Positions 6,526 to 56,556 of a DNA stretch of 64,000 bases are shown in pieces. The position numbers were made by a program, and so were the translations under genes. Origin of the DNA: a phage; NCBI GenBank assembly GCA_026209155.1, contig GCA_026209155.1_3056.1; one strand, written 5' to 3'. The notes beneath the pieces were generated by a model. That model was not told the origin of the DNA, did no database searches, and was given only the letters and a program-made list of their open reading frames with translations. Positions within the stretch are counted from its first letter, which is position 1; every line of letters begins with the position of its first letter.

Positions 6526-6885
6526 TCAATACGGTTTAGCATCAAATTTTCTTTCAATTTCAGGCGTGAAATACAATTCTTTACCGCGTTTGGAAAAGCG
6601 ACCAATAATATGATAATTATTCTCATCAAACGTAATATTGCCAATATCCATAGCTTTCAACCAAATATCGATATTTCTATCCAGTTTTATATCAAAATTC
6701 CAATACGGAGAACTATTACCGAAAATACTGCAAGCGGATTCAGTGAAACAACTACTATAAATCTTGTCTTTAGGAACTACTAATTGATAGACGCCTTTAA
6801 TAAACTGAGGACCCTGCCATTTTGGTTGTTTCGCGTCTTTTTCTAATAGAATAGGGTAATAATTAAAATTCATATTTTCCGCCAC
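6526..6885 (-). CDS. Hypothetical protein, 119 aa, between frd and td
   Basis: ORF in the frd-td interval; I remember frd and td as directly overlapping in T4, so likely an insertion. Confidence 0.5.
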   Translation of the reverse strand: MAENMNFNYYPILLEKDAKQPKWQGPQFIKGVYQLVVPKDKIYSSCFTESACSIFGNSSPYWNFDIKLDRNIDIWLKAMDIGNITFDENNYHIIGRFSKRGKELYFTPEIERKFDAKPY

Positions 6886-9324: not shown

Positions 9325-9370
9325 CCGATAGTTGTATAGTACCATAGAATGCTTTGGTTGTAAACAGTTT
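9325..9370 (-). promoter_or_regulatory. T4-type early promoter (-35 GTTTAC, 17-nt spacer, -10 TATAGT-like) with conserved leader
   Basis: Minus-strand GTTTACAACCAAAGCATTCTATGGTACTATACAACTATCGG...; same block recurs at 26560, 30420, 56510. Confidence 0.5.
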
Positions 9371-13302: not shown

Positions 13303-16300
13303 ATGGCCGAGATTAAAAGAAAGTTCAGAGCAGAAGATGGTCTGGACGCAGGTGGTGATAAAATAATCAACGTAGCTTTAGCTGATCGTGCCGTAGGAAC
13401 TGACGGCGTTAACGTTGATTACTTAATTCAAGAAAACACAGTTCAACAATATGATCCAACTCGTGGATATTTAAAAGATTTTGTAATCATTTATGATAAC
13501 CGCTTTTGGGCTGCTATAAATGATATTCCAAAACCAGCAGGAGCTTTTAATAGTGTACGCTGGAGAGCATTACGTACTGATGCTAATTGGACAACTGTTT
13601 CATCAGGACCTTATCAATTAAAGTCAGGCGAATCAATTTCAGTTGATACTGCAGCTGGTAATGACATTACATTTACTTTACCATCTTCCCCAATTGATGG
13701 AGATACTATCGTTCTCCAAGACATTGGAGGAAAACCTGGAGTTAACCAAGTTTTAATTACCGCTCCGGTGCAAAGCATTGTAAATTTTAGAGGTCAGCAA
13801 GTACGATCAGTACTAATGACTCATCCAAAATCGCAGATAGTTTTAATTTTTAGTAATCGTCTGTGGCAAATGTATGTTGCTGATTATAGCAGAGAAGCTG
13901 TAGTCGTAACACCGGCAAGTCTTTATCAGGCGCAATCTAACGATTTTATCGTGCGCAGATTTACTTCAGCCGCGGCGATTAATATTAAACTTCCGAGATT
14001 TGCTAATCATGGCGATATTATTAATTTCGTCGATTTAGATAAACTAAATCCACTTTATCATACAATTGTTACTACATACGATGAAACTACTTCAATACAA
14101 GAAGATGGAACTCATTCCATTGAAGGCCGTACATCGATTGACGGTTTCTTGATGTTTGATGATAGTGAAAAATTATGGAGATTGTTTGACGGGGATAGTA
14201 AAGCACGTTTACGCATTATAACGACTAATTCAAACATTCGTCCAAATGAAGAAGTTATGGTATTTGGTGCGAATAATGGAACAACTCAAACGATTGAACT
14301 TCAGCTTCCAACTAATATTTCTGTTGGTGATACTGTTAAAATTTCCATGAATTACATGAGAAAAGGACAAACAGTTAAAATCAAAGCTGCCGGTGAAGAT
14401 AAAATTGCTTCTTCAGTTCAATTGCTGCAATTCCCAAAACGCTCAGAATATCCACCTGAAGCTGAATGGGTGACTGTTCAAGAATTAGTTTTTAACGGTG
14501 AAACTAATTATGTTCCAGTTTTACAGCTTGCTTATATTGAAGATTCTGACGGAAAATACTGGGTTGTACAGCAAAACGTTCCAACTGTTGAAAGAGTCGA
14601 TTCTTTAAATAATTCTACTAGAGCAAGATTAGGCGTAATTGCTTTAGCTACACAAGCCCAAGCTAACGTCGATTTAGAAAATTCTCCACAAAAAGAATTA
14701 GCAATTACTCCAGAAACATTAGCTAACCGTACTGCTACAGAAACTCGTAGAGGTATCGCAAGAATAGCAACTACTGCTCAAGTAAATCAGAACACTACAT
14801 TCTCTTTTGCTGATGACCTTATCATCACTCCTAAAAAGCTGAATGAAAGAACTGCTACAGAAACTCGTAGAGGTGTCGCAGAAATTGCTACGCAGCAAGA
14901 AACTAATGCAGGTACTGATGATACTACAATCATTACTCCTAAAAAGCTTCAAGCTCGTCAAGGTTCTGAGTCATTATCTGGTATTGTAACTTTTGTATCT
15001 ACTGCAGGTGCTACTCCAGCTTCTAGCCGTGAATTAAATGGTACGAATGTTTATAATAAAAACACTAATAATTTAGTTGTTTCGCCTAAAGCTTTGGATC
15101 AGTATAAAGCTACTCCAACGCAGCAAGGTGCAGTAATTTTAGCAGTTGAAAGTGAAGTAATTGCTGGACAAAGTCAGCAAGGATGGGCAAATGCTGTTGT
15201 AACGCCAGAAACGTTACATAAAAAGACATCAACTGATGGAAGAATTGGTTTAATTGAAATTGCTACGCAAAGTGAAGTTAATACAGGAACTGATTATACT
15301 CGTGCAGTCACTCCTAAAACTTTAAATGACCGTAAAGCAACTGAAAGTTTAAGTGGTATAGCTGAAATTGCTACACAAGTTGAATTCGACGCAGGCGTCG
15401 ACGATACTCGTATCTCTACACCATTAAAAATTAAAACCAGATTTAATAGTACTGATCGTACTTCTGTTGTTGCTCTATCTGGATTAGTTGAATCAGGAAC
15501 TCTCTGGGACCATTATACCCTTAATATTCTTGAAGCAAATGAGACACAACGTGGTACACTTCGTGTAGCTACACAGGTCGAAGCTGCTGCAGGAACATTA
15601 GATAATGTTTTAATAACTCCTAAAAAGCTTTTAGGTACTAAATCTACTGAAGCGCAAGAAGGTGTTATTAAAGTTGCAACTCAGTCTGAAACTGTAGCTG
15701 GAACGTCAGCAAATACTGCTGTATCTCCAAAAAATTTAAAATGGATTGTGCAGAGTGAACCTACTTGGGCAGCTACTACTCTGGTAAGAGGTTTTGTTAA
15801 AACTTCATCTGGTTCAATTACATTCGTTGGTAATGATACAGTTGGTTCAACACAGTCATTAGAATTGTACGAGAAAAATAGTTATGCAGTATCGCCATAC
15901 GAATTAAACCGTGTATTAGCAAATTATTTGCCGTTAAAAGCAAAAGCTGTAGATAGTAATTTACTGGATGGTCTAGATTCATCTCAGTTCATTCGTAGGG
16001 ATATTGCACAAACGGTTAATGGTTCACTAACCTTAACCCAACAAACGAATCTGAGTGCCCCTCTTGTATCATCTAGTACTGCTACGTTCGGTGGATCAGT
16101 TTCAGCAAATAGTACACTAACCATTTCTAATACTGGAACAGCAACTCGTCTGATTTTTGAGAAAGGACCTCAAACTGGAACGAACCCGGCTCAAACGATG
16201 ACAGTCAAAGTGTGGGGAAATCAATTTAGTGGTGAATCAGACACAACGCGTTCTACTGTATTTGAAGTTAGTGATGAAACGTCTAGTCACTTTTATTCTC

Positions 16301-26533: not shown

Positions 26534-26559
26534 TTTCTAATCTCCGTAATTCTGTATCA

Positions 26560-26605
26560 GTAGTTGATAGTTGTATAGTACCACAGTATGCTTTGGTTGT
26601 AAACC
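26560..26605 (-). promoter_or_regulatory. T4-type early promoter for motA
   Basis: Minus-strand GGTTTAC-17 nt-TACTATAC, conserved leader, Shine-Dalgarno GGAG then motA ATG. Confidence 0.55.
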
Positions 26606-26623
26606 GTTTTGTGAAAAAATTTT

Positions 26624-26655
26624 TGAAATAAAAAAGGGAGAGCCTCGGCTCTCCC
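26624..26655 (-). terminator. Rho-independent terminator downstream of gene 52 / small ORF
   Basis: Minus-strand GGGAGAGCC-GAG-GCUCUCCC followed by UUUUUUAUUU. Confidence 0.65.
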
Positions 26656-29580: not shown

Positions 29581-29680
29581 AGTAAGCGTTTAATACATCA
29601 ATCATTAAAACGATTGGGAATATACTCAAAACTACTAGTATTATAACTACATTCCATATAGCTTTAACAATCTTTTTCAT
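29567..29680 (-). CDS. Small membrane peptide (37 aa); track ORF 29567..29815 trimmed to the internal Met after the promoter
   Basis: MKKIVKAIWNVVIILVVLSIFPIVLMIDVLNAYFGFM; upstream part of track ORF is read-through of promoter DNA. Confidence 0.45.
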   Translation of the reverse strand: MKKIVKAIWNVVIILVVLSIFPIVLMIDVLNAYFGFM

Positions 29681-30419: not shown

Positions 30420-30465
30420 CAGTTGATAGTTGTATAGTACCACAGTCCTTGTGGTATGTAAACCA
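30420..30465 (-). promoter_or_regulatory. T4-type early promoter immediately downstream of denB
   Basis: Minus-strand GTTTAC-17 nt-GTACTATAC with conserved leader CTATCAACTGATAC. Confidence 0.5.
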
Positions 30466-34711: not shown

Positions 34712-34745
34712 TAATTATACCACATCCTTGTGGTAAAGTAAACTA
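34712..34745 (-). promoter_or_regulatory. T4-type early promoter (-35 GTTTAC, 17 nt, -10 GTATAAT) overlapping the gene 39 stop
   Basis: Minus-strand GTTTACTTTACCACAAGGATGTGGTATAAT. Confidence 0.55.
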
Positions 34746-36563
34746 TTGGCTCATCCATTCTTTACGAAGGTCAGCATTATCTCCCATGAGCATTTCAAAA
34801 AGCTCTTTCCAGTTCTCAGGAAGTTTAACAACATCATATACTGGGTTTTGAATCATCTCACGATATTCAGATTTTTCCAAAGAGCCAAGTCCTTTAATAT
34901 AACGGATGCTATGTTTAGGTAGAGCATCTTTGGCACTCTCATATTCAGCGACTGTATAAAACCATTCTTGTTTTTTACCGACCTGAGCGATGATTACAGG
35001 AGTTTTGACAAAGCGAATTCTTCCTTGTTCAAACAATTCTGGCCAATTACTAAAAAATCCGAGCAGAGAAGGATAAATGCTTCCTAGACCATCATGGTCA
35101 GCATCAGTCATAATAGCAATATTATGATAATTCAAGTTTTCAGCCTTTTCACCAAGAACTAATCCAGTGATTGCACAAATATCGAACAGTTCTTTGTTTT
35201 TAAGCATATCAGCATATGACATGCCCCAACTGTTAAGAACTTTACCACGCAATGGATAACCACCATGAAGTTCTTTATCACGAACATCAATAAGATATCC
35301 GATAGCAGAATCACCCTCAGTCAAGAAAAGAGTAGTATCAGCATCTTTACCGCAAAGATTCGCTTTGATATGTTTATGAACCTTAGCTTTAGAAGCCTTT
35401 TTAGCTGCTTTAGTTTCTGCTGCTTTTTCTGCCGCCAATTTACGAGCCAAAGCAGCTTCAATAATCGGCATTAGAATTGCTTCATTATTTAGAATAGCGC
35501 GTGAAATCTTTTTAGCATCAAGCTGAATATGACTACGAATTTCGCCAAATGGAGAAGTCAAACGCTCTTTAGTTTGAGAATCAAATCGCATGTTTTTCAT
35601 ATCACGAACAAACATAACGATAGTCAAACATTCTTTAACACGTGCTTTAGTTACATCAATTTTGAACTTACGTTTGATTTGTGGAATAAGGTCTTCACAA
35701 ATATCATCCATAACGCAGTCAATGTGATGGCCACCATTCTTAGTATGAATGTTATTGACGTATGTTAATTGACGAAAACCATCCGGTGAACGACCAACCG
35801 CAATAGAACAATTTTCTTGTTCTTGAACAATAGCATGTTCATCATATTGGCGTGCATATTTCTTAAAATTACCCTGAACCTTTTTACCATTAAAGGTAAA
35901 TTGAATATCAGGATAAACTACTGCAAGTGTCTGGAGACGATCTAGCGTAATGTCAAGATAAACTTGAGATAGTTCATTAGTTTCAAATGACATAAAATCA
36001 GGAATGAAAGTAACACGAGTTCCTTTCCATTTTCCAGGAATAGTTTCCCATGATTTATTTTCCATGCCATTTGAACAACGAACTACAATATTATTTTGAC
36101 CATCGCCAGTTTCACCGACAAACATCACAGAAAAAATGTTAGTTAAACTAGAGCCAACACCGTTCATACCGCCAGTGACGCGTTCTTTATCATCACCAAA
36201 GTTACCACCTGCTTTTGGAATAGTCCAGGCAGCAACAGGACCAGGAATTTCTTCACCAGTAGGTGTTTTAACCATCGCTTGTGGAATACCACGACCGTTA
36301 TCTTCAACTGTTACTTGATTGTTTTTGATAGTAACATTAATTTTATTTGCGAATTTAAACTTAGTACGAATACCTTCATCTACTGAGTTATCGATAATTT
36401 CATCAATAAGCTTAACAAGACCAGGTACATACTGAACACTTTCCCATTTACCAAACAGAAAGCGCTCATGCATTTCATTAGCGGAAGAGCCAATGTACAT
36501 GCCGCTACGCTTTTTGATATGTTCAATATCGCTCAGAATTTTAATTTCATTCTTAATCATCAC
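34743..36563 (-). CDS. 39: DNA topoisomerase II large subunit gp39, uninterrupted (GyrB-like ATPase plus Toprim region that is gene 60 in T4)
   Basis: 606-aa continuous ORF; C-terminal IAIMTDADHDGLGSIYPSLLGFFSNWPELFEQGRIRF segment is contiguous. Confidence 0.9.
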   Translation of the reverse strand: MMIKNEIKILSDIEHIKKRSGMYIGSSANEMHERFLFGKWESVQYVPGLVKLIDEIIDNSVDEGIRTKFKFANKINVTIKNNQVTVEDNGRGIPQAMVKTPTGEEIPGPVAAWTIPKAGGNFGDDKERVTGGMNGVGSSLTNIFSVMFVGETGDGQNNIVVRCSNGMENKSWETIPGKWKGTRVTFIPDFMSFETNELSQVYLDITLDRLQTLAVVYPDIQFTFNGKKVQGNFKKYARQYDEHAIVQEQENCSIAVGRSPDGFRQLTYVNNIHTKNGGHHIDCVMDDICEDLIPQIKRKFKIDVTKARVKECLTIVMFVRDMKNMRFDSQTKERLTSPFGEIRSHIQLDAKKISRAILNNEAILMPIIEAALARKLAAEKAAETKAAKKASKAKVHKHIKANLCGKDADTTLFLTEGDSAIGYLIDVRDKELHGGYPLRGKVLNSWGMSYADMLKNKELFDICAITGLVLGEKAENLNYHNIAIMTDADHDGLGSIYPSLLGFFSNWPELFEQGRIRFVKTPVIIAQVGKKQEWFYTVAEYESAKDALPKHSIRYIKGLGSLEKSEYREMIQNPVYDVVKLPENWKELFEMLMGDNADLRKEWMSQ

Positions 36564-37447: not shown

Positions 37448-37867
37448 TTATTCCTTAAAATGTGCTTTCAACATCTGATACAAAGACCATGCATGTTCAT
37501 TATTTTCAATAGTAACTTTCATTACCGGGAATTCTGTGAAATCTTCTATTTGTTCTTGCTCTTCCTGCTCTTGTTCTTCAGCAGCCTGATATGGATTTTC
37601 AACTTCATCAAAGAACCCAGCTTCACTTTTTGAAAGCCAAATAAAGTCTTCATCCAAAACATCTTTATCAGGAGATAGTACTAAATTTCCAGTAGATGAC
37701 AAAATTTTAATAGGACGCCCAAGAGCGTCCACATCTAAAATTTTAAAAGGATACATACCTAAACGGCGCGCATAAATTCCGTTATTAATATGGTCTTTAA
37801 TAAAATTTTCTTGAGCTTGTTTATTTTTAAATTGATACCATTTATTAACTTCAAATCTAATAGCCAT
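37448..37867 (-). CDS. Hypothetical protein with acidic [10 protein letters not shown] segment (possibly goF-like)
   Basis: 139-aa ORF. Confidence 0.5.
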
Positions 37868-38082
37868 TAATAAATTTCCTTCCAGTAAGTTGTACCGTCT
37901 TCAGTGATTTCACGGAATACACCGTAAATTGGCTGTTTATCACCAACCTTTTCATACACATAAACCGAAGTCAAGTGAGTAAACTTAATGGTGTGTTCCT
38001 TTTGAACCACTACCAAATCTGGATCGAATAATACATCTTCAAATTCGTCATTAGTGCATTTCTGAACAGTTTTACGTTTCAT
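37867..38082 (-). CDS. Hypothetical small protein (possibly cef-like)
   Basis: 71-aa ORF downstream of inverted-repeat/promoter region. Confidence 0.45.
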
Positions 38083-38175
38083 TACAATTTCCTCATTAAT
38101 TGAACAGTGGAGCGATGCGTTTCAGAAGAGTAGCAGCACCTTTGGCAAATTTTCCATTTTATTCTCCAAGTTGTT

Positions 38176-38222
38176 TTCTGTATCAGTAGTTGATATTGAT
38201 ATAATACCATAATCAACTACTG
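38176..38222. repeat. Perfect 13-bp inverted repeat (ATCAGTAGTTGAT / ATCAACTACTGAT) around a 17-nt AT-rich spacer, inside an early-promoter-like region
   Basis: Read directly; the left arm is the conserved early leader block, the right arm is its exact reverse complement. Confidence 0.6.
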
Positions 38223-38253
38223 ATGTATATAGTTTTATGAAAAAATTTAAACT

Positions 38254-38751
38254 TTATGCACAGCGGGCTTTGCTATAGTGTTTAATCCAACTTTCGGGAA
38301 TGACTTTGTATGTTCCTAAAAATACCGCGTTGTACAACTTAACGCCATCTTCTACCCATTGATCGGTAATGTATGCACACATAGCACGAGTACGGTGTTT
38401 TTGAACAACCCCTTCCTCATCTTCAGTAAATTCGAATTCATAAGGAGCAATGAACTTAATAGCCTGACCGAGTTTCCACTTAAAGTCTACACCTACATGC
38501 GAAGTATCAATCGTTTCAATTCCTTTAGCAGGAACAGCTTTCAAAAACGCAGATTCAAGAAATTTCGCACGAACATAGCCAAACTGAGGTTTAGACTTTC
38601 CATCTTTAGGAATGATACGCACTTTTACTTCAGAATCTTCATCTTTAACGCCATGTTTAAGCTGAATGCTTACAATTTCGACCAATTTTCCTGCTGCTTT
38701 AGAACGGGATTTATCAGATACACGAGCAATTTCACCAATATTAATAATCAT
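38254..38751 (-). CDS. Hypothetical protein, paralog A of tandem pair (possibly MotB-like)
   Basis: 165 aa; C-terminal motif AYITDQWVEDGVKLYNAVFLGTYKVIPESW shared with next ORF. Confidence 0.55.
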   Translation of the reverse strand: MIINIGEIARVSDKSRSKAAGKLVEIVSIQLKHGVKDEDSEVKVRIIPKDGKSKPQFGYVRAKFLESAFLKAVPAKGIETIDTSHVGVDFKWKLGQAIKFIAPYEFEFTEDEEGVVQKHRTRAMCAYITDQWVEDGVKLYNAVFLGTYKVIPESWIKHYSKARCA

Positions 38752-38827
38752 AGTTATCTCTCACTTGTTAAAAAGATTTTATACTCCACAGGACCATTAT
38801 ACTCTGGTCCCAAGAGTTTGTAAACTA

Positions 38828-39370
38828 TTAATTCAAAATAGCTACCACCGCACTACGAGGTACTACACTAAAATCACCTGCATGAACAACGTTCAGAAGT
38901 TCAACACCATCTTCAATCCACTGGTCTGTTACCCAACCGCAGACTGAAATAAATGGAGTCTTGATAGCTACCGCACGAGTTAGAAGGTCTGTAGGGTCTT
39001 GTTCTTCAACTTCTTGGAACAGGATGAACTCTGCTTCATAAACCAGGATTTTCTCTATTTTGTTATTGTCTAAACGACGACCGTGTACAATATAAGATTT
39101 AGTAAACCATTTACTTTTTTCAAAGTCTTCAACAGTAAATTCGCCTTCGCCAAAAACATCAGTCAGAGTTTTATGGCCGGAAATCAAGGCATTAGTTTTA
39201 ATTTCAGGTTCAACCAGTTTGTAGGTTTTGCCGATTTCAATAGCGGTAGTCATAGTAGGTTCCTTAATTTCCAGTGGTTTAACAGGGCATACATAAGTGC
39301 TTACAACATCAAAATCAATCAGTTTAGCTACCGGATTTGGTATGTATTCAGGATTATAATTAAATTTCAT
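38828..39370 (-). CDS. Hypothetical protein, paralog B of tandem pair
   Basis: 180 aa; C-terminal motif GWVTDQWIEDGVELLNVVHAGDFSVVPRS. Confidence 0.55.
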   Translation of the reverse strand: MKFNYNPEYIPNPVAKLIDFDVVSTYVCPVKPLEIKEPTMTTAIEIGKTYKLVEPEIKTNALISGHKTLTDVFGEGEFTVEDFEKSKWFTKSYIVHGRRLDNNKIEKILVYEAEFILFQEVEEQDPTDLLTRAVAIKTPFISVCGWVTDQWIEDGVELLNVVHAGDFSVVPRSAVVAILN

Positions 39371-39372
39371 AA

Positions 39373-39912
39373 TTATCTCATTTCAATAAAATCTATGAGT
39401 TCAGCATGCGATTTGCGGAACATTACTTGGTGCCCGCCAATGATAACTTCATCTTCAGGAACTTCGTATACAGCGAGATAAAATCCTTTAGAAGATAATT
39501 CTTCCCGCTCTTCTCGTGTGAACCATCTCATCATATCATATTCACTAGCGAAAGCAAAATGATAAAGAGCTATAAACCATCCTGGAATATGATATTCTAC
39601 TCCAACATAATCTTTCTTGAACTTAGTATTAATTACTATATTAGCGTTTTTAACTAATAGTTTATCTTCGTGTGGTAAAGGAATTCTTTTATTATTATCG
39701 CTATGATGCATAAAATTAGGTCTGTCATAACCTACGTGTAATAGCCACTCTTCGCTCCATGAATCTATTATACTCCTGTACGGCGTTATTTGAACACAAA
39801 GATTTCGACGTATTGTTATAGCATCTTCATAATCAAGAATACTAAACGATGATTCAACACGATAAATTTTCATTTTATTATCCTCAGTAGCTATGGTGTT
39901 ATAATACCACAA
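39373..39912 (-). CDS. Hypothetical protein
   Basis: 179-aa ORF immediately downstream of early promoter after dexA. Confidence 0.5.
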   Translation of the reverse strand: MWYYNTIATEDNKMKIYRVESSFSILDYEDAITIRRNLCVQITPYRSIIDSWSEEWLLHVGYDRPNFMHHSDNNKRIPLPHEDKLLVKNANIVINTKFKKDYVGVEYHIPGWFIALYHFAFASEYDMMRWFTREEREELSSKGFYLAVYEVPEDEVIIGGHQVMFRKSHAELIDFIEMR

Positions 39913-39932
39913 CTAACCGAGGAAGTAAACAA
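39895..39932 (-). promoter_or_regulatory. T4-type early promoter (-35 GTTTAC, 17 nt, -10 GTATTATAA)
   Basis: Minus-strand GTTTACTTCCTCGGTTAGTTGTGGTATTATAA. Confidence 0.55.
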
Positions 39933-39936
39933 CTTT

Positions 39937-40620
39937 TTATCGTTTTGTTGGAAGAGAAAGAGGATCGCACTCTTCTTCTGACGGAGCATCTTCAAGACCC
40001 ATAGCATATCGCAAAGCATACTTCATCATCAGGATGTCTTTCGCACAGTCATGAATAGAATCATGTGCAACGAATCCATCTAAAGTTCCCTTTGGAAGAG
40101 GACACGTGGTCATATCACGAACAAGGAGAAGTGCTTCAATTCTGGTACGAATATCACGCTGATTCCAGAATTTACACGGTTCTAACTTAAATGTGTCAAG
40201 TTCATTCTCAGAAACGCCATTAAGACGTTGAATATCGCGAATGAGATCGACTAAAATTGGAAAATCAAACGACATTCCACGGCACCAGCCTTGAGATTTC
40301 CAAGGATCGATGTTATGTGCATTGATGTAATCATTAAATTTTGCAATACCATCGATAGTGCTTACATCTTCATCTGATGGTGCAATATTTTTTCGAGCTT
40401 CGGGAGACTGATTTTTCCACCATTCGATAGTGCTTTTAGTAAAAAGACGATGTCCTTTTTGGCTTTTTAAATCAAATTTGATTTTAATGCCGCGCGAAAC
40501 TAATTCATCAAATGATTCAACTACTTCTGGATTAGGGTCAAAGGCAATAACAGCCAAATCAATAACAGCTGCCTTTTCACCGCTTCCCATTGTTTCAAAA
40601 TCTATAATAAAATCAAACAT
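39937..40620 (-). CDS. dexA: Exonuclease A (DEDDh 3'-5' exonuclease)
   Basis: 227 aa as in T4 DexA; N-terminal FIIDFETMG exo motif. Confidence 0.88.
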   Translation of the reverse strand: MFDFIIDFETMGSGEKAAVIDLAVIAFDPNPEVVESFDELVSRGIKIKFDLKSQKGHRLFTKSTIEWWKNQSPEARKNIAPSDEDVSTIDGIAKFNDYINAHNIDPWKSQGWCRGMSFDFPILVDLIRDIQRLNGVSENELDTFKLEPCKFWNQRDIRTRIEALLLVRDMTTCPLPKGTLDGFVAHDSIHDCAKDILMMKYALRYAMGLEDAPSEEECDPLSLPTKR

Positions 40621-56487: not shown

Positions 56488-56509
56488 TTTATTCTCCAAA
56501 TCTGTATCA

Positions 56510-56556
56510 GTAGTTGATAGTTGTATAGTACCATGGAAGAACAGTCTTGTAAACAG
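56510..56556 (-). promoter_or_regulatory. T4-type early promoter downstream of gene 43
   Basis: Minus-strand GTTTAC-17 nt-GTACTATAC with conserved leader. Confidence 0.5.

Follow-up and report, generated by a model that had tools for sequence, protein, structure and literature searches.

A perfect inverted repeat around the -10 element of a predicted early promoter between motB and cef of a T4-like phage, and its possible role as a promoter-nested hairpin

The stretch of phage DNA analysed here (64,000 nt of contig GCA_026209155.1_3056.1, GenBank assembly GCA_026209155.1; referred to below, at its full length, as the window) belongs to a Tequatrovirus, i.e. a T4-like phage; a 2.5-kb query around the site under study matched 715 phage records, the best of them at 95-98% identity. 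The site is a 13-bp perfect inverted repeat inside the 171-nt intergenic region between a motB homologue and cef, where the local genes lie on the minus strand according to the list of open reading frames (ORFs) and the comparison with phages T4, F25 and IME340. Direct reading and an exact pattern search of the window place the left arm, ATCAGTAGTTGAT, at 38182-38194 of the plus strand, followed by 17 A+T-rich nucleotides, ATTGATATAATACCATA (38195-38211), and by the right arm, ATCAACTACTGAT (38212-38224), which is the exact reverse complement of the left one. A preliminary description had put the repeat at 38176-38222, so that its two ends have to be moved by +6 and +2 nt; the rest of that description was accurate, and both the 13-bp arms and the 17-nt AT-rich spacer were found again on exact re-reading of the letters. 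The repeat surrounds the -10 element of a predicted early promoter and may represent the stem of a composite element of the PeSL type, a published class in which an early promoter is combined with a stem-loop.

Read in the sense direction, the predicted promoter and its leader consist of the following parts.

38232-38255, minus strand: UP-element-like A+T-rich tract AAAGTTTAAATTTTTTCATAAAAC, recognised by sequence reading
38224-38229, minus strand: -35-like hexamer TATACA, on which the promoter scan and a separate regular-expression scan agree
38212-38224, minus strand: 5' arm, in sense orientation ATCAGTAGTTGAT, filling the spacer between -35 and -10 and unique to this promoter
38195-38211, minus strand: loop, in sense orientation UAUGGUAUUAUAUCAAU, holding the extended -10, the -10 and the discriminator
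38209-38201, minus strand: extended -10 and -10, TGgTATTAT, from the consensus scan
38200-38195, minus strand: discriminator of six bases, recognised by sequence reading
38182-38194, minus strand: 3' arm, in sense orientation ATCAACTACTGAT, a conserved leader block at the predicted positions +1 to +13
38162-38167, minus strand: Shine-Dalgarno sequence (SD) GGAGAA (GGAG of the RegB type, then an A-rich tract), outside the stem and 14 nt beyond the hairpin on its downstream side

The promoter scan reported this site as TATACA-17-TATTAT with TG before the -10 (9 of 12 matches; 38229-38201, minus strand), and it agrees with the T4/PST consensus TTTACW-N17-TAYWAT save for one -35 base; the -35 region of the T4 early consensus is GTTTACA, as against TATACA here. 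The UP tract begins within the stop codon TAA of motB (38256-38254), the last base of TATACA is at the same time the first base of the 5' arm, and the ATG of the downstream ORF is found at 38157. The predicted start, an A at 38194, is the seventh base after the -10, a position inferred from spacing, and coincides with the first base of the 3' arm. The spacer is thus exactly complementary to the first 13 bases that the promoter itself is predicted to transcribe, and the -10 therefore lies in the loop. Since the palindrome straddles the -10 in this way, with the 5' arm as the spacer and the 3' arm as the predicted +1 to +13, the promoter's own transcript is left without a 5' arm, and the hairpin can form only in RNA coming from upstream promoters. 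This geometry, together with the minus-strand orientation of the genes, had been missed in the preliminary description, although the leader nature of one arm, the lone copies of that arm elsewhere and the hairpin were all interpreted correctly there.

The promoter belongs, as a diverged copy, to a family of repeated early-promoter cassettes (D1, five copies). Its UP tract, -10 and leader are homologous to those of the copies at 9365, 26604, 30463 and 56554, the UP tract corresponding to the tract AAATTTTTTCACAAAAC upstream of other family members, while only the spacer and two -35 bases differ. The block ATCAGTAGTTGAT has two further exact copies in the window (26556 and 56506), both at early promoters, where the leader follows the -10 at an equal distance; neither copy has an inverted partner, and the spacers of the sister promoters are unrelated to the 5' arm. 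Both earlier statements, that one arm is a conserved early-promoter leader and that the other copies lack the right arm, are therefore borne out. In other words, several early transcripts are predicted to have the leader as their +1 to +13, and among their promoters only the one at the palindrome has a complementary spacer. The identical predicted 5' end extends to AUCAACUACUGAUACAG at three early promoters (26556-26572, 38182-38198 and 56506-56522, in plus-strand coordinates), and in several genera many early promoters have a shorter version of the leader (CTATCAAC...) after their -10. Downstream of the leader, UUGGAGAAUAAAAUG (38162-38174, minus strand) fits the target pattern of the RegB endoribonuclease, GGAG followed by an A-rich tract (features of RegB targets: PMC1702504), and the same SD context occurs downstream of the promoters at 56554 and 30463. 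Other repeats are present in the window as well: the direct-repeat families D3, D5 and D7 (29-68 nt) lie within about 1 kb, at 14704-15629, presumably in a repetitive coding region.

The genes around the palindrome, identified from the ORF list and by comparison with T4, F25 and IME340, are given below.

38254-38751, minus strand: motB homologue, the upstream gene (ORF list; T4, F25 and IME340 annotation)
38122-38157, minus strand: remnant ORF of 11 codons, MENLPKVLLLF and a stop (alignment with F25)
37867-38082, minus strand: cef, the first intact gene served by the palindrome promoter (ORF list; T4, F25 and IME340 annotation)
37448-37867, minus strand: goF (comparison with T4, F25 and IME340)
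34743-36563, minus strand: gene 39, unsplit (comparison with T4, F25 and IME340)

Two motB-family genes and dexA belong to the same neighbourhood. The motB homologue has a promoter of its own in the promoter scan (TTTACA-17-TATAAT, 38824-38796); transcripts of motB and of promoters farther upstream would traverse the palindrome. The 11-codon ORF is the leftover of an 89-aa ORF (phrog_3720, function unknown) after a frameshifting deletion of 208 nt. The full ORF is intact between the palindrome promoter and cef in F25, T2, RB51, 121/2022-2B, RB6 and IME339 (the corresponding locus in record L001 is 1595-1864), and the deletion, which has an AAAA microhomology at its junction well downstream of the palindrome, is common to the window, T4 and IME340. 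The region around the site is dispensable in T4 (PMC6070864). As in RB69, the large subunit of topoisomerase II (34743-36563, minus strand) is encoded by a single 606-aa ORF; in T4 the insertion of mobA has divided it into genes 39 and 60.

In the 64-kb window this is the sole perfect inverted repeat of at least 11 bp with a loop of at most 30 nt, hence the longest of its kind. Sixty first-order Markov simulations of the window gave a mean of 0.05 repeats of at least 13 bp, so the origin of the palindrome by chance alone is only modestly unlikely (about p = 0.05 per window). When the comparative evidence described below is added, the palindrome is real and beyond chance.

The sense RNA was predicted to fold with an energy of -20.2 kcal/mol (z-score -4.8 against shuffles in a 121-nt context), the 13-bp stem being topped by a 2x2 internal loop, a second helix of 5 bp (UGGUA/UAUCA) and a terminal loop of 3 nt. 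For the antisense strand the value is -18.0 kcal/mol. When a 401-nt read-through transcript from motB into cef was folded, the probabilities of the 13 pairs were 0.87-1.0. The expectation of a 13-bp RNA hairpin without a U-tract is thus supported: the 3' side of the hairpin has the tail ACAGAAAACAAC and no U-tract. A scan of 37600-40200 found no terminator-like site, and the hairpin was rejected as a canonical intrinsic terminator, having G-C pairs at 5 of 13 positions, a loop of 17 nt (3 nt when the inner helix is formed) and no U-tract. The Rfam scan assigned it to no family, the sole match being a spurious one to mir-549 (23 bits against a gathering score of 93). The SD (38167-38162) lies outside the stem, so sequestration of the SD or AUG within the helix is not predicted here. 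Two further candidates were set aside. A replication origin is not indicated, as oriA of T4 maps near soc and not here (PMC3016281); half-sites of the FNR, CRP, Fur or IHF kind were considered by eye only, and the spacing of the palindrome is unlike that of FNR sites (TTGAT-N4-ATCAA).

The palindrome is identical in T4 (NC_000866, about 6582-6624), F25 and IME340, in answer to the question whether it recurs in related genomes. Of the 535 phage records matched by an 81-nt query, 494 share at least 95% identity with it, and haplotypes were read base by base in the window, T4, F25, IME340, IME339, RB6, G2540-3, HY01, T2, RB51, 121/2022-2B and ZN18-like metagenomic contigs. The 26 arm bases were unchanged in all these Tequatrovirus haplotypes. 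The differences were confined to the lengths of the A/T runs in the UP tract, to two positions of the loop (an A/G difference ahead of TGG and a C/T difference within the -10) and to the downstream ACAGAAAACAAC segment. Such invariance is only suggestive of constraint on the arms, given how similar the genomes are and that the 3' arm would be conserved as a leader in any case. Viral contigs were also scanned by pattern for further Tequatrovirus haplotypes with variable arms, and this returned only five contigs that were already in the sample.

For the comparison with other genera, loci with Cef homologues (42-68% identical) were gathered from viral contigs, metagenomes and GenBank phages, the metagenome scan adding few new lineages. 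A hairpin around the -10 of the promoter directly upstream of cef was found in Mosigvirus, Dhakavirus, Moonvirus, Gelderlandvirus and several other Tevenvirinae lineages. The arms of these hairpins are unrelated to those of T4 (GGTGTAGGAG/CTCCTACACC; TGGTAGGAGC/GCTCCTACCA; GATAGGGTA/TACCCTATC). Compensating changes were seen between AGGGCTAT/ATAGCCCT and AGGGTTAT/ATAACCCT, and between GGTCTAT/ATAGACC and TGTCTAT/ATAGACA; one arm pair, GGTAGGAGCAT/ATGTTCCTACC, includes a G.U pair, and one arm variant, GGCCTAT, loses a pair.

For a test of covariation, 23 distinct promoters were aligned on the -10, blind to structure, and one geometric helix was imposed on them with its axis between -10 positions 1 and 2. 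Paired cells amounted to 78.8%, as against 34-45% when the partner was slid by 1-3 columns. The number of cells changed on both sides was 39, compared with 14.2 +/- 3.7 in shuffles, none of which (0 of 500) reached 39, and the covariation score was 0.342 against 0.175 in shuffles and at most 0.177 when slid. Related sequences inflate such figures; the slid controls are nonetheless clear, and the covariation at the cef-promoter hairpins of other genera is significant. In every lineage outside Tequatrovirus (the cef promoters of lineages L009-L093), the symmetry axis of these hairpins has one constant place, between bases 1 and 2 of the -10 hexamer, while in Tequatrovirus it is the centre of the hexamer, 2.5 nt farther downstream. 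A few exceptions are instructive, though anecdotal. In Roskildevirus IT22 a canonical terminator precedes the promoter and the -10 hairpin is only weak, in a distant lineage (L020/L043) it is the -35 that the stem encloses, with a T-tract after it, and the cef promoter of a Jiaodavirus (L092) carries a small CCACA/TGTGG hairpin inside the spacer. A hairpin of the same form, CCACA-N4-TGTGG, also occurs in the -35/-10 spacer of two more promoters of the window (about 34715-34743 and 30440-30463, minus strand); these spacer hairpins correspond to the PeSL subclass with a stem-loop "between -35 and -10".

The comparison with other genera bears on two of the functions that had been proposed for the palindrome. 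One of these is an RNase III processing site, at which read-through RNA would be cut into separate motB and cef messages. The 13 bp, the 2x2 loop and the 5 bp stack to a helix of about 20 bp, a size like that of T7 R1.1-type sites, and to this extent the proposal stands. The equivalent hairpins of other genera, at 8-13 bp, are below the roughly two helical turns that are normally needed and thus too short for a canonical substrate, no Rfam family was matched, and few such sites are known in T4 mRNA; RNase III processing is accordingly quite improbable. The other is a protein-binding palindrome, i.e. an operator for a sequence-specific dimeric DNA-binding protein such as a factor for the shut-off of this early promoter. 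The perfect dyad overlaps the -10, and the mechanism of early-promoter shut-off in T4 is unknown (PMC2988021), which could speak for such a protein. Yet the dyad has no second copy in the window, promoters of the same architecture use unrelated arms even within one genome (for example TGTAAGAGCA, GGTGTAGAAGT and TGGTAGGAGC in L078), and the arms change between genera while their complementarity is kept, which points to pairing rather than to a recognition sequence. Therefore, an operator is the least likely of the alternatives considered, and we give it very little credence.

The arrangement is not restricted to cef. A scan of 20-kb regions from 11 lineages, of RB69 and of the window covered 73 distinct early promoters, and 15 of them (20.5%) have a -10-straddling helix with a score of at least 8, compared with 1.9% of chimeras in which the left half of one promoter was joined to the right half of another. 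The enrichment is about 11-fold (permutation p < 5e-5), and the palindrome promoter has the highest score of those scanned, 13. A second class, in which the spacer pairs with the SD region, was recognised in the window and RB69, and its two representatives in the window are as follows.

39923-39907 with 39896-39881, minus strand: SD-pairing hairpin before the motB.2 homologue (ATG at 39873), -23.7 kcal/mol
29728-29715 with 29697-29684, minus strand: SD-pairing hairpin CTGTTCCTCTGTGG/CTACGGAGGAACAG before an ATG at 29680, -23.2 kcal/mol

The spacer TCCTCGGTTAGTTGTGG of the promoter at 39923 pairs with the promoter's own leader, including the SD GAGGA, so the folding model predicts that this SD would be masked in read-through RNA but not in RNA started at the promoter itself. 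RB69 has two more promoters with pairing of the SD region (7429 and 20523). When the hairpin at 29728-29684 is compared with its counterpart on contig L063 (about 18129), two C/T changes are found in the 5' arm, both opposite a G, and the pairing is kept by G.U only, which hints at selection on the sense RNA.

These sister promoters raise the possibility that the palindrome, too, is an origin-dependent switch, such that read-through and promoter-initiated RNAs differ in the translation or decay of the next cistron. Its geometry equals that of the hairpins at e, soc, 49 and I-TevI of T4, where the promoter's own transcripts likewise lack the 5' arm; both sister hairpins of the window bury the SD, as do the two in RB69; and the predicted probability of the cef SD being unpaired is 0.13-0.20 in read-through RNA against 0.48-0.82 in the promoter's own RNA. 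On the other hand, the SD nearest to the palindrome (38167-38162) is separated from the stem by 14 nt and is predicted to be poorly accessible in either RNA, the difference at the cef SD is a fragile one that depends on long-range pairs within truncated RNAs, and the hairpins of other genera also end 8-12 nt before the SD. For this reason a switch of this kind seems unlikely at cef.

Another explanation might be that the palindrome is a neutral by-product, in which a templated strand switch (quasipalindrome correction) or an inverted recombination of promoter cassettes placed the leader's complement in the spacer, and which would persist only because Tequatrovirus genomes are young and similar. 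Perfect and invariant arms are what a recent single event should leave, the 3' arm is constrained anyway as a leader, the compared genomes are 94-98% identical, and the simulations do not make a chance origin very rare. Against this, the variable sites of the 81-nt region all fall outside the 26 arm bases, compensatory changes keep a like hairpin at the same promoter in other genera, and the class as a whole is enriched over chimeric controls. The inverted homology, moreover, stops at 13 bp, none having been found beyond the arms on by-eye inspection of the flanks, unlike what a larger inverted cassette would give. A recombination footprint, as had been suggested earlier, may thus explain how the repeat arose; it does not explain its maintenance, given the invariant arms beside a variable loop and flanks and the compensatory changes elsewhere. 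As a full account, the neutral origin is also unlikely.

A role at the level of DNA was also considered. A perfect repeat can form a hairpin on both strands; single-stranded DNA is predicted to fold with about -11 kcal/mol per strand (z about -5). Extrusion of a cruciform or hairpin might modulate the promoter by exposing a single-stranded -10, or the repeat might be a hotspot of breakage or template switching for the shuffling of cassettes. Cruciform extrusion is very strongly disfavoured by a 17-nt spacer. The fixed position of the symmetry axis relative to the -10 in many lineages is in keeping with a DNA element, as are the indel of the ORF next door and the mapping of PeSL recombination junctions in or near stem-loops (PMC2839356). 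The deletion in that ORF, though, ends at the AAAA microhomology and not at the palindrome, and related hairpins contain G.U-only pairs, albeit not significantly more often than A.C. On balance, a DNA-level element is improbable.

The interpretation that we prefer, with a probability of about one half, is that the palindrome is the stem of a composite PeSL-type promoter-in-hairpin at the motB-cef boundary, for which a role as attenuator, insulator or 3'-end barrier may be inferred. By this reading, RNA started at the palindrome promoter would carry the 3' arm only and could not fold the hairpin, as follows from the geometry, while RNA from motB and beyond would fold a hairpin of about -20 kcal/mol and 18 bp with one interruption. 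The hairpin on read-through RNA would then mark the boundary between two early units, motB and cef, where it would attenuate or pause the incoming polymerase. Alternatively, it might be a 3'-end barrier that stabilises the motB message after a downstream cut, e.g. at the GGAG 14 nt away. The cassette, not specifically the palindrome, may in addition serve the recombination that shuffles small ORFs in this region.

Several points weigh against this reading. The stem is A+U-rich (5 of 13 G-C pairs) and is followed by no U-tract, and for these reasons the hairpin is not a canonical intrinsic terminator. Both the promoter activity and the +1 are predictions only; the searchable literature gave no transcript-end, termination, stability or reporter measurement for this site, and a search of it for an atlas of T4 transcription start sites or 3' ends found none. 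Within Tequatrovirus the stem has no covariation, since its arms never vary, and conservation of the 3' arm as a promoter leader accounts for part of this invariance. The palindrome hairpin may also be an independent invention and not an orthologue of the hairpins of other genera, because its symmetry axis differs from theirs. Over all promoter hairpins, 15 G.U mismatches stand against 11 of A.C, a difference without significance (about 7 to 2 when only well-formed helices are kept, by a filter chosen post hoc), so a role at the RNA rather than the DNA level is not proven. Finally, separate upstream terminators are not significantly depleted at hairpin promoters (1 of 15 against 8 of 58); the idea that hairpin promoters replace such terminators is fitted by Roskildevirus IT22 and L020/L043, though anecdotally.

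It is tempting to ask whether promoter-nested hairpins are a general, selected design of T4-type early regions that marks each transcript by its start site. In such a design the spacer would encode the 5' arm, and the 3' arm would be either the promoter's own leader or the SD, so that read-through RNA would be folded, with the outcome of attenuation, of a stabilised 3' end, or of masking from translation and protection from RegB, and locally started RNA would stay open. With the symmetry axis fixed at the -10, the leader-pairing and SD-pairing classes would be two uses of one mechanism. In T4 early regions a promoter stands before almost every small gene with almost no intergenic space, and both the insulation of the units and the difference between immediate-early and read-through ("delayed-early") expression of the same gene are only partly understood; an RNA structure that depends on the originating promoter would be a compact answer to both questions. 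If true, the design would exceed the published view of PeSLs as a terminator and recombination linker. We put it forward as a tentative generalisation and think it rather doubtful at present.

Among known systems, the closest are the PeSLs, defined in RB49 and phi1 by Arbiol et al. 2010 (PMC2839356) and extended to PST/T4 by Comeau et al. 2014 (PMC4122927). In a PeSL, a strong early promoter with an AT-rich tract upstream of it is combined with a stem-loop, for which five positions are described (most commonly between -35 and -10 or overlapping -10), and with a downstream SD and ATG; PeSLs are clustered in plastic regions beside ORF indels, and their stem-loops were proposed to act as terminators or attenuators of upstream transcription, one of them cutting lacZ expression like rrnB T1 (PMC2839356). 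The element at the motB-cef boundary has a sigma-70-type early promoter, an AT-rich tract at 38255-38232, a 13+5 bp hairpin enclosing the -10, the SD GGAGAA with the ATG at 38157, membership in the repeated family D1 and the 208-nt ORF indel beside it. It is thus of the PeSL type by all the sequence-level features that define the class, sharing with it the stem within the promoter, the small downstream ORF, the repeated cassette family and the location in a dispensable region with ORF presence and absence. The differences are that the stems of RB49 and phi1 are of polyG/polyC, whereas the present one is A+U-rich and perfect over 13 bp, that the stem-loops of PST/T4 were described just upstream of the promoter, whereas the palindrome overlaps the promoter core, and that its stem is built from the promoter's own initial transcribed sequence, the predicted +1 being the first base of the 3' arm.

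The T4 genes e, soc, 49 and I-TevI also have a promoter inside a hairpin, and their long transcripts bury the ribosome-binding site, which is open in the internal transcripts (PMC3014915). The palindrome resembles them in having the promoter in the 5' part of the hairpin and its own transcripts without the 5' arm. There the SD or AUG is buried and the promoters are late or middle ones, in contrast to the early promoter and the outlying SD found here, but the sister early promoters at 39923-39881 and 29728-29684 do bury the SD in the same manner.

Intrinsic terminators before early promoters are similar in placing a hairpin at the boundary of two early transcription units. Canonical examples combine a short loop with a G+C-rich stem and a U-tract and precede the UP element; the palindrome has none of these features and overlaps the promoter core. 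An example in the window is the canonical terminator GGGAGAGCC-GAG-GGCTCTCCC with its T-run (26622-26650, minus strand), directly upstream of the UP tract of the 26604 promoter, which represents the classical order of terminator, then promoter, as against the overlapping arrangement at cef. The T7 R1.1-type RNase III sites are intercistronic hairpins of comparable size, and the likeness comprises the intercistronic position, about 20 stacked bp, an internal loop and the lack of a U-tract; the palindrome differs from them in having no sequence or Rfam similarity and in the shortness of the hairpins of its relatives. Thus, the palindrome is best regarded as a well-conserved and very clean example of an already published class, and not as a new kind of system.

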